Sequence record: ON081052
From: Escherichia phage vB_EcoS_SCS31
Strand: one strand, 5' to 3'
DNA length: 46,054 nucleotides
The notes beneath the pieces were generated by a model. That model was not told the DNA's origin. It saw nothing but the letters and a program-made list of their open reading frames with translations, and made no database searches. This document shows, piece after piece, positions 1-527 of the stretch (position 1 is its first letter; every line of letters begins with the position of its first letter). Position numbers and translations under genes: made by a program.

Positions 1-527
1 TGAACTCTTTCTTTATATGCAAACTTGAAACAGGCGATTCTCATTTTTGTGTGATGCATTCGATTGAAAAAGTCAATAGATGAGAGAAAGAAAACGGGCA
101 ATTTACGCAACTTTTTGCAAATTAATCCTCGCCACAAGGTTACATGTAACTTTAGTTATCGCGTGTAGATAATCTGCAATAGTTACGCATATAACGCCAA
201 ATCACGCGCTGGTTACAAATAAATCCCTTATATATAAACAACTTAGATTTATTATTATTATTATTATATATATGTAACTAATGTAACCATGTCATCGGGC
301 GCGTTGATTGAAAATCCTATATTGCGCGCGACTTTTATTTATATATTAGCGGAAGGTATAGCACCCCATTTAGGTCGGTTACAGCTGTCTACTCGGTTAC
401 ACTCGCAGGAATAAAGGTGTCAGCAAAATAATTTGTGTAAATTTTGAGTATAACGCTTGTCTACGCGTAATTGAGGTAGTATAGTTATCTCACACCAAAG
501 AGAGGTGTCATTGAAAGGGTTATTAAA

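Follow-up and report, generated by a model that had tools for sequence, protein, structure and literature searches.

Phage T1 is one of the original T phages, and T1-like phages are both notorious contaminants of fermentations and candidates for phage therapy, two fields in which the control of their replication is of practical interest. Where replication might start in such phages is a question raised by an AT-rich, repeat-bearing module in the 46,054-bp genome of Escherichia phage vB_EcoS_SCS31 (ON081052; the window), which is present twice, at 130-420 (copy 1) and at 25754-26090 (copy 2), and which an earlier note on this DNA had proposed to be an origin of replication or a regulator-bound early control region. 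The window is 100% identical to the complete genome of Escherichia phage vB_EcoS_ACG-M12 (NC_019404; Drexlerviridae, Braunvirinae, Guelphvirus); it is referred to here as ACG-M12, and the numbering of gene products (gp) follows that record. As regards the literature on origins, iterons and early promoters of T1 and the Drexlerviridae, the origin was not found in a T1-like genome according to the SU57 paper of 2020 (PMC7718038), and no origin or iterons were found in the TLS paper of 2024, where only 21-nt ATAGCAC repeats are given as unexplained (PMC11447400); nothing further was found, and the papers on T1 (Roberts 2004) and Rtp (Wietzorrek 2006) may mention the regions. The module is real and present family-wide, and it is almost certainly a protein-binding site of nucleoprotein assembly. 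Concerning its function, the proposal of the earlier note is supported, with several results favouring an origin with which a control function could coexist, and we lean towards reading each module as a replication origin of the iteron and DNA-unwinding-element type, two per genome, opened by a phage-encoded initiator.

The two modules stand out from the rest of the genome by their content of GTTAC and its complement GTAAC, with 8 occurrences in 130-420 and 11 in 25754-26090. These 19 in 628 bp compare with 1.5 predicted by the density over the whole genome (binomial p = 9e-16). They are the densest two 300-bp intervals genome-wide for this pentamer, and none of 5000 dinucleotide-preserving shuffles of either region equalled the observed count. 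It had also been claimed that the second region carries the same elements in the same order, a claim that a lack of similarity beyond AT-richness was to refute; alignment of both regions bears out the shared order for 25754-26090, and the similarity exceeds base composition, as blastn of 130-420 against the genome returned 25808-25910 as the sole significant second match (72.5% identity, 109 bp, E = 3e-9) and the Smith-Waterman score of the two copies lies 15.7 standard deviations (SD) above that of shuffled sequences.

An alignment comprising 11 copies of the module, with ACG-M12, Rtp, phiEB49 and five Rtp-like contigs as sources, was combined with direct reading. Together they indicate a repeat unit best given as about 7 bp, (G/A/T)(T/A)TAC(G/A)(C/T), with degenerate copies (ATAACGC, ATCACGC, ATTGCGC) occupying the 10-11 bp phase, and a common plan consisting, from left to right, of blocks A, B, C, D (the core), E, F and G. 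Block A is a palindromic iteron pair followed by two reverse iterons in 10-bp phase, block B is a CCATCCGCGG-AAA box, and block C comprises four forward iterons in 10-11 bp phase; block D is an AT core of about 55 bp composed of TATATATA, TTTAGA, (ATT)n and TATATAT, block E contains one or two reverse iterons, block F is a weakly conserved spacer of about 90 bp, and block G holds two or three forward iterons with a spacing of 9-11 bp. Blocks C and E, which contain the innermost iterons, are thus oriented toward each other over the core, with about 62-66 bp between these iterons.

Copy 1 is situated inside a 673-bp intergenic region that spans the record ends, from gp01 (minus strand, end 45908) to gp78 (plus strand, start 528). 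Its block A opens with the palindromic pair GTTAC-AT-GTAAC, read directly at 139-150, where the perfect palindrome that had been reported is indeed present as GTTACATGTAAC, and continues with degenerate reverse repeats to about 175; its counterparts in the alignment are GGTTACGCGTAACC of copy 2 and the homologous palindromes in phages of the Rtp type. Block B is deleted from this copy, and block C (181-218, plus strand) is formed by the forward iterons AGTTACGC, ATAACGCC, ATCACGCG and GGTTACAA, which adjoin the left side of the core in 10-11 bp phase and whose ACGC/TTACA columns are invariant in the 11-sequence alignment. The element AGTTACGCATATAACGCC, listed previously at 181-198, is found there but represents two adjacent repeats and no palindrome, because the repeat unit is about 7 bp long with degenerate copies in phase. 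The AT core at 219-272, a candidate DNA unwinding element, consists of TATATATAAA, TTAGAT, (ATT)6 and TATATAT (88.9% A+T), and its right side adjoins block E (273-287, minus strand), i.e. two reverse iterons TGTAAC (273-278 and 282-287) that face block C; the (ATT)n/TATATAT/GTAAC block described in this area is present at 243-290. Block G (375-401, plus strand) contains two distal forward iterons TCGGTTACA, at 375-383 and 393-401, so the repeats placed at 376-400 exist, but as direct repeats 18 bp apart and not strictly in tandem. Homologues of this block are the forward-repeat triplets of copy 2, Rtp, T1, TLS and other genomes.

Copy 2, at a distance of 25.6 kb, is flanked by gp39, which extends to 25724 on the minus strand, and by the plus-strand gp38, the first gene of the recE-erf-ssb operon. 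Its block A (25754-25786) is made of the palindrome GGTTACGCGTAACC and the reverse iterons TGTAAC (25770-25775) and TGTATAC (25780-25786) in 10-bp phase, its block B is a CCATCCGCGGGAAA box at 25792-25805 with related boxes in TLS, T1, grams, SECphi27 and Sushi, and its block C (25808-25846, plus strand) comprises the four forward iterons AGTTACGC, ATTGCGC, AGTTACGC and AGTTACAC, again in 10-11 bp phase. The AT core follows at 25847-25903 (TATATATATAAA, TTTAGA, (ATT)4, TATATATATA; 89.5% A+T), then block E (25905-25919, minus strand) with a reverse TGTAAC (25905-25910) and a degenerate TGCAAC (25914-25919), and finally block G (26023-26050, plus strand) with the three distal forward iterons CGTTACAT, GGTTACAT and AGTTACAT at 9-11 bp spacing. 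The open reading frames within the modules are short only, without a ribosome-binding site and with low-complexity products, and a search of the window against Rfam returned a tRNA at 3487-3558 only, with no structured-RNA match in the modules.

The predicted stability of the duplex, calculated as the nearest-neighbour free energy of 40-bp segments (also of 60 and 100 bp for ACG-M12), distinguishes the cores in most of a family sample of 12 Drexlerviridae genomes from eight genera, namely ACG-M12, Rtp, phiEB49, T1, TLS, phSE-2, CS01, Sushi, KLPN3, grams, HCF1 and SECphi27. In ACG-M12, whose genome is 56.5% A+T, the core of copy 1 is the least stable 40-bp duplex (-35.8 kcal/mol versus a mean of -53.6, SD 3.7), and that of copy 2 ranks second in instability at 40 bp and first at 60 and 100 bp. 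In 10 of the 12 genomes the two lowest stabilities at 40 bp likewise belong to the two AT cores, which deviate from the mean by about 4.3-5.4 SD versus about 3.1-3.7 SD for the next segment; phiEB49 is counted among these 10, yet a third AT-rich spot ranks first there at 40 bp. The exceptions are grams, where the cores rank first and third in instability, and HCF1, where the core of copy 2 alone is among the four least stable segments and copy 1, which may be split by the record ends, was not located.

The layout of the module is also conserved, as position maps of 22 modules (11 genomes) show a reverse and then a forward iteron set to the left of the core and, to its right, a reverse set, the spacer and a forward set. 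A reverse iteron adjoins the right side of the core in all 22 modules and a forward iteron adjoins its left side in about 17 of them. Throughout the family sample, one copy always lies where the helicase (gp09) operon and the first rightward operon diverge, and the other just upstream of the recE operon. The module structure is retained even in copy 2 of TLS and phSE-2, which is located between co-directional genes without a leftward gene, and in the Klebsiella phage Sushi, whose recE operon, followed by copy 2, is inverted and downstream of the primase gene.

In contrast to this layout, the sequence of the repeat differs between genera, so that the comparison with related phages that had been suggested recovers the module and not a universal GTTAC. 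The iteron is GTTAC(A/G) in ACG-M12, TATAC/GTTAC/TTTAC-RC (WTACRC) in Rtp and phiEB49, ATTACGC and CGATTAACA (also given as ATTACGC/GATTAACA) in T1, GAACA/TGTTC in TLS, phSE-2, CS01, grams, SECphi27 and HCF1, and GTAAGAT/ATCTTAC in Sushi and KLPN3, with the degenerate repeats of several genomes having been identified by eye where automatic k-mer discovery failed. Within each genome the same repeat is found in both copies, and it differs even among six phages that share E. coli as host. Such concerted change within genomes, even on one host, argues for a phage-encoded, co-evolving DNA-binding protein as the binder of the repeats and makes a host factor unlikely in that role. Taken together, a layout that is constant in 22 modules while the repeat changes by genus supports the idea that the half-sites are protein-binding iterons. 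A relation of the GTTAC in the -10 region of ATAGCAC-type promoters to the iterons was considered and rejected, since ACG-M12 has TATAGTTAC at this position but TLS has TATGATTAC despite its GAACA iterons; this GTTAC is unrelated to the iterons.

Candidates for the binder were sought by Pfam and PHROG domain scans of about 40 proteins. The leading candidate for an iteron-binding, self-loading initiator helicase is gp09 (42590-44173, minus strand), a DUF3987 helicase whose MCM-like AAA+ core is joined by a winged helix near the C-terminus, at about residues 451-527. [quoted passage not shown] It has been reported that DUF3987 proteins are putative replicative helicases of SF6 (MCM-like) with a winged helix-turn-helix (HTH) at the C-terminus, that such domains serve origin recognition (PMC4889955), and that one PriCT-DUF3987 protein has demonstrated helicase activity (PMC11724360). 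The putative recognition helix H3 of gp09 (residues 494-508) exists in four variants that coincide with four iteron classes, namely M(T/A)KIKD with TAC-type iterons, M(K/R)R(I/L/M)E with GAACA-type iterons (six genomes, five genera), SK(K/R)IKE with GTAAGAT iterons and AERIDS with the iterons of T1, and the iteron classes agree with the gp09 tree but not with the gp29 tree (identity matrix, 25 orthologue sets, seven genomes). This co-variation is suggestive of gp09 as the binder. The presumed priming partner is gp30 (32162-33088, minus strand), a DnaG/P4-alpha-type primase with a zinc ribbon (Pfam Zn_Ribbon_Prim; PHROG 510 DNA primase, E = 5e-92).

An alternative candidate binder is gp29 (33144-33650, minus strand), a Cro/CI-like HTH protein with sub-threshold Pfam matches and a match to PHROG 2856 'transcriptional regulator'; this family-specific regulator is encoded in 828 sequenced records, and the domain scans detected no other recognisable HTH protein, nor any second protein recognisable as DNA-binding. 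Its candidacy is not supported, as its HTH helix differs between TLS and CS01, which have an iteron in common, and is similar in CS01 and Sushi, whose iterons differ, and the gp29 tree also separates TLS from CS01. Sequence searches with gp09 and gp29 against the PDB gave no significant match, a search for related loci with gp78 returned none, and Pseudoalteromonas phage H40/1, considered as a relative, proved to be unrelated, sharing a common short HTH match only. The gp29 and primase genes are preceded by a sigma-70-like promoter, TTGTCT-N17-TACAAT, at 33704-33732 (minus strand, 12.5 bits), which suggests that they are early genes, and the helicase gene gp28, divergent from gp29, has an ATAGCAT repeat at 33663-33679.

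From the repeats as observed, with their enrichment, phase and orientation, the instability of the cores, the family-wide conservation and the concerted change of the iterons, and from the fold of gp09, we infer that a protein binds the repeats, that gp09 is this protein and that replication starts at the modules. The mechanism proposed is that a phage initiator would bind 5-7 bp iterons, helically phased at 10-11 bp, face to face on both sides of the core, and that the protein assembled on both flanks would melt the core, after which one hexameric helicase would be loaded per side, gp30 would prime and host polymerase would extend. The likeliest initiator, gp09, would read the iterons via its C-terminal winged helix and load itself in the manner of the SaPI Rep helicases; origin 1 would head the gp09 operon beside the pac-proximal end, and origin 2 would be ahead of the recE-erf-ssb operon. 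An origin is also favoured by the promoter scan (sigma-70 weight matrix, both strands, scores in bits), in which canonical promoters fall outside and downstream of the modules and the ACG-M12 cores remain below 6.5 bits. Several observations weigh against this interpretation. GC and AT skew track gene orientation only and give no origin signal, even at copy 2 of TLS with its co-directional flanks; the modules do not adjoin gp09, copy 1 being about 2 kb upstream and copy 2 about 16.5 kb off; both precede the two multi-gene operons that lack an upstream ATAGCAC repeat, which would suit a transcriptional role equally well; and a -35/-10 pair of 8-10.6 bits occupies a conserved position in the cores of Rtp, phiEB49 and TLS. 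As for the match between H3 and the iterons, all four iteron classes are monophyletic for gp09, so that shared ancestry could yield it, the physical linkage of copy 1 to the gp09 operon could also produce it, and H3 is called a recognition helix from the fold alone. Furthermore, the sole characterised DUF3987 helicase has 5'-3' polarity, unlike MCM and the SaPI Reps (PMC11724360).

The same promoter data bear on the possibility that the module is an operator or enhancer array through which a phage regulator, e.g. gp29, switches the two early rightward operons (gp78 onwards and gp38-recE-erf-ssb) off or on, with the AT core as a promoter or UP-element region like lambda OL/OR; this role, which is compatible with an origin, is the main rival reading but the less probable one. 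Both modules are directly upstream of the only two multi-gene operons without an ATAGCAC-N5-TGCTAA repeat. These operons are probably sigma-70-dependent early operons because of the lack of that repeat, and gp29, the sole recognisable HTH protein, has its own sigma-70-like promoter (33732-33704). The conserved pair in the cores of Rtp, phiEB49 and TLS has the form of a candidate promoter, TTTAGA-N17/18-TATATT, the minus strand offers GTTACA-N16/17-AATAAT matches, and in copy 2 of ACG-M12 there is no other promoter of at least 9 bits for the recE operon. However, beyond the low scores of the ACG-M12 cores, canonical early promoters lie 60-250 bp downstream at a variable distance from the repeats. 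Across both strands of the ACG-M12 modules, the only one of at least 9 bits is TTGTCT-N17-TATAGT (457-485, 12.4 bits), downstream of block G, just upstream of gp78 and outside the repeats, and the strong promoters of T1 copy 2 (TTGACT-N16-TATAAT, 15.1 bits), TLS copy 1 (TTGACG-N17-TAATAT, 13.0 bits) and Rtp copy 1 (TTGATA-N16-TAATAT, 11.3 bits) are likewise outside the repeats and variably distant from block G. The simple-sequence tract varies in length from (ATT)4 to (ATT)9 or more and is (TTTA)n in CS01, a misfit to a fixed -35/-10 spacer; 11-14 sites per module, arranged in four sets round the least stable DNA, are far beyond the needs of known operators; the left half of the module is kept in copy 2 of TLS and phSE-2 though no leftward gene exists there; and the gp29 recognition helix, as described above, does not follow the iteron in TLS, CS01 and Sushi.

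Readings in terms of packaging, recombination or passive structure are unlikely. That the module is a pac or terminase-recognition region, or a recombination hot spot forming concatemers, has a very small probability in our view: copy 1 is a few hundred bp from the left, pac-proximal end of the T1 record (annotated terminal repeat 1-2800), its core holds AGATTTAT, a match to the central part of the P22 pac consensus cited for TLS, the TerS of T1 is P22 gp3-like, and copy 2 precedes the recE-erf-ssb recombination genes, but T1 and TLS use a single pac versus two module copies 25-30 kb apart, AGATTTAT is missing from copy 2, Rtp and T1, and the iteron specificity differs by genus. The module is therefore rejected as a pac site, which would be a single TerS-recognised site per genome where the headful series begins. 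A better pac candidate is a separate repeat-rich stretch with TGATTG/GCAATG motifs, left of copy 1 at the record ends (1-110 and 46015-46054 of the window, 1-110 in Rtp and 1-60 in two other genomes), which takes the form TGATTG/GCAATGATT in T1, Rtp and phiEB49 and GATTTGA in TLS. Slightly less probable still is a passive structure, either curved or meltable DNA with host nucleoid proteins or an insulator between divergent operons, in which the repeats would have no specific partner; the extreme AT content and the simple-sequence tracts would fit it, but the repeats contain G+C, have a phase and an orientation, keep their positions and are genus-specific even on one host, and no DnaA box, GATC site or IHF consensus is found in either module.

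Further observations concern the ATAGCA-N5-TGNTAA repeat, the 21-nt repeat of unknown function in the TLS paper (PMC11447400), of which the window contains 19 versus 1.2 expected, almost always along the direction of transcription (e.g. 2116-2132, 5966-5982, 18846-18862 and 36163-36179 on the plus strand; 25736-25752, 44815-44831 and 45997-46013 on the minus strand). It includes a palindrome, TAGCA-N5-TGCTA, whose centre lies about 42 bp upstream of a -10 that resembles TATAGT and has no -35 hexamer, and it is followed by a conserved ATCGAAACGA leader; judging from these sequence features, the sites look like a family of class II promoters, middle or late, that depend on an activator. The repeat is invariant between genera and the gp29 HTH is variable. 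One ATAGCAC repeat (32098-32114, plus strand), between the minus-strand primase gene and the tail-fibre genes, opposes local transcription.

Some features of individual blocks, cores and gene starts were also recorded. Block B can be given as a (C)CATCCGCGG/CCGGCGTA-AAATT box between A and C, which is present in ACG-M12, Rtp, phiEB49, TLS, phSE-2, grams, SECphi27 and Sushi and is recognisable among genera whose iterons differ; it could be the site of a conserved factor or a primase start site. The third AT-rich segment of phiEB49 (18560-18660), between gp30 and an anti-repressor gene, is flanked by repeated GGCAAAACC(G/A)ATTGGATAA elements and is without module-type iterons, and both cores of CS01 (about 28440-28530 and 47900-47990) are bracketed by an inverted repeat, CCTCCCC...GGGGAGG, about 50 bp apart, which would favour extrusion of the core as a cruciform or hairpin. 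Downstream of copy 2, gp38 (26060-26245) is annotated from the ATG at 26060, and an in-frame ATG at 26105 has a much better ribosome-binding site (AAGGAG, 26090-26095); the shorter product of 46 amino acids seems likelier, in which case the non-coding region of copy 2 would reach 26104. In Rtp (28260-28280) the start annotated for rtp46 (ATGATATACACGATATACACG) and the block G iterons of copy 2 overlap, and this start codon is probably mis-assigned. The record ECH1 (MN164484.2), of the same length as ACG-M12, has 28 differences from it in the non-coding 1-527 versus 2 in 528-1100, and 23 of these 30 are transversions, a pattern that suggests sequence error or record editing more than natural divergence; this comparison was not used. 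Elsewhere in the genome, two paralogous HNH endonuclease genes (17224-17721 and 39194-39688) contain DNA stretches that are 84% identical (repeat families D11 and D16).

For the T1-like phages, the modules represent two precise candidate origins, accompanied by a protein that may be the initiator. Their confirmation would supply minimal cis elements by which a phage could amplify plasmids, a means of tracing the exchange of replication modules among the gp29-encoding records, and a natural series of iteron and winged-helix variants for studying DNA recognition by self-loading MCM-like helicases.

Comparison with known systems places the modules with respect to both control regions and origins. 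Lambda OL/OR are similarly two paralogous control regions heading early operons in a phage that encodes Cro/CI-like HTH proteins, as gp29 is, but they consist of three 17-bp operators overlapping clear -35/-10 elements. Each module instead has short phased repeats, 11-14 in number and grouped in four sets round an AT core, with the canonical promoters outside the repeats, and the helix of gp29 does not follow the sequence of the repeats. The lambda origin and oriL/oriR of SPP1, the latter a pac-type virulent siphovirus with two origins, resemble the modules in having initiator-binding repeats beside an AT-rich unwinding region. However, the origin of lambda and oriL of SPP1 are within the initiator gene whereas the modules are intergenic, and their 18-19 bp iterons or AB boxes are bound by O or G38P and require a separate helicase loader; homologues of O, P, G38P and G39P were not detected among the proteins scanned. 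A lambda-type origin, with 18-19 bp iterons in an O-type gene and a P-type loader, was accordingly rejected, as was an oriC-like DnaA-dependent origin, for which the modules have none of the boxes or sites named above. Satellite P4 is a second analogue, in that its ori and crr are two separated cis regions with the same short iterons and its primase is of the P4-alpha type (DnaG-like, zinc-ribbon). The type I iteron of P4, TGTTCACC, is similar to TGTTCAC, the iteron of the TLS class. P4 combines primase, SF3 helicase and winged helix in a single protein, in contrast to gp30 and the SF6 gp09, which are separate and encoded about 9.5 kb apart, and no iteron-flanked AT core is described for crr. 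The alpha protein also shares with gp09 a helicase bearing a C-terminal winged helix as origin-binding domain (PMC4889955).

It is with the SaPI origins that the Drexlerviridae modules have all cis features in common, and the phage encodes the same type of protein. These origins contain 6-12 penta- or hexanucleotide iterons and a central AT-rich region, with at least 2 iterons per side in opposite directions, and the iterons are read by the winged helix of a self-loading Rep (SF3 in SaPI1 and SaPI5, SF6 or MCM-like in SaPI2 and SaPIbov1) that requires no loader and whose binding and melting are ATP-independent (PMC9371898). In ACG-M12 the 8 and 11 exact GTTAC/GTAAC copies, together with degenerate ones, correspond to this iteron number, the two AT cores to the easily melted centre, as far as predicted stability indicates, and the opposed flanks are formed by forward iterons at 181-218 facing reverse ones at 273-287 and by those at 25808-25846 facing 25905-25919, as in most of the 22 modules. 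The differences are that the SaPI origin directly follows rep, whereas neither module is directly downstream of the helicase gene; that SaPIs are satellites and the host of the modules is a virulent Gram-negative siphovirus with two per genome; that the phage modules carry extra outer iteron sets (blocks A and G); and that gp09 has no sequence-level similarity to solved Reps. The broader proposal, to which we give somewhat less than even credence, is that the Drexlerviridae use two SaPI-like origins opened and loaded by their own MCM-like winged-helix helicase, without a host initiator or loader, and that the complexes may gate two early operons. If true, this would be the first origin identified for the T1 phage family, and the self-loading-helicase origin design of Gram-positive satellites would be operating in virulent coliphages, with its specificity diversifying between genera.

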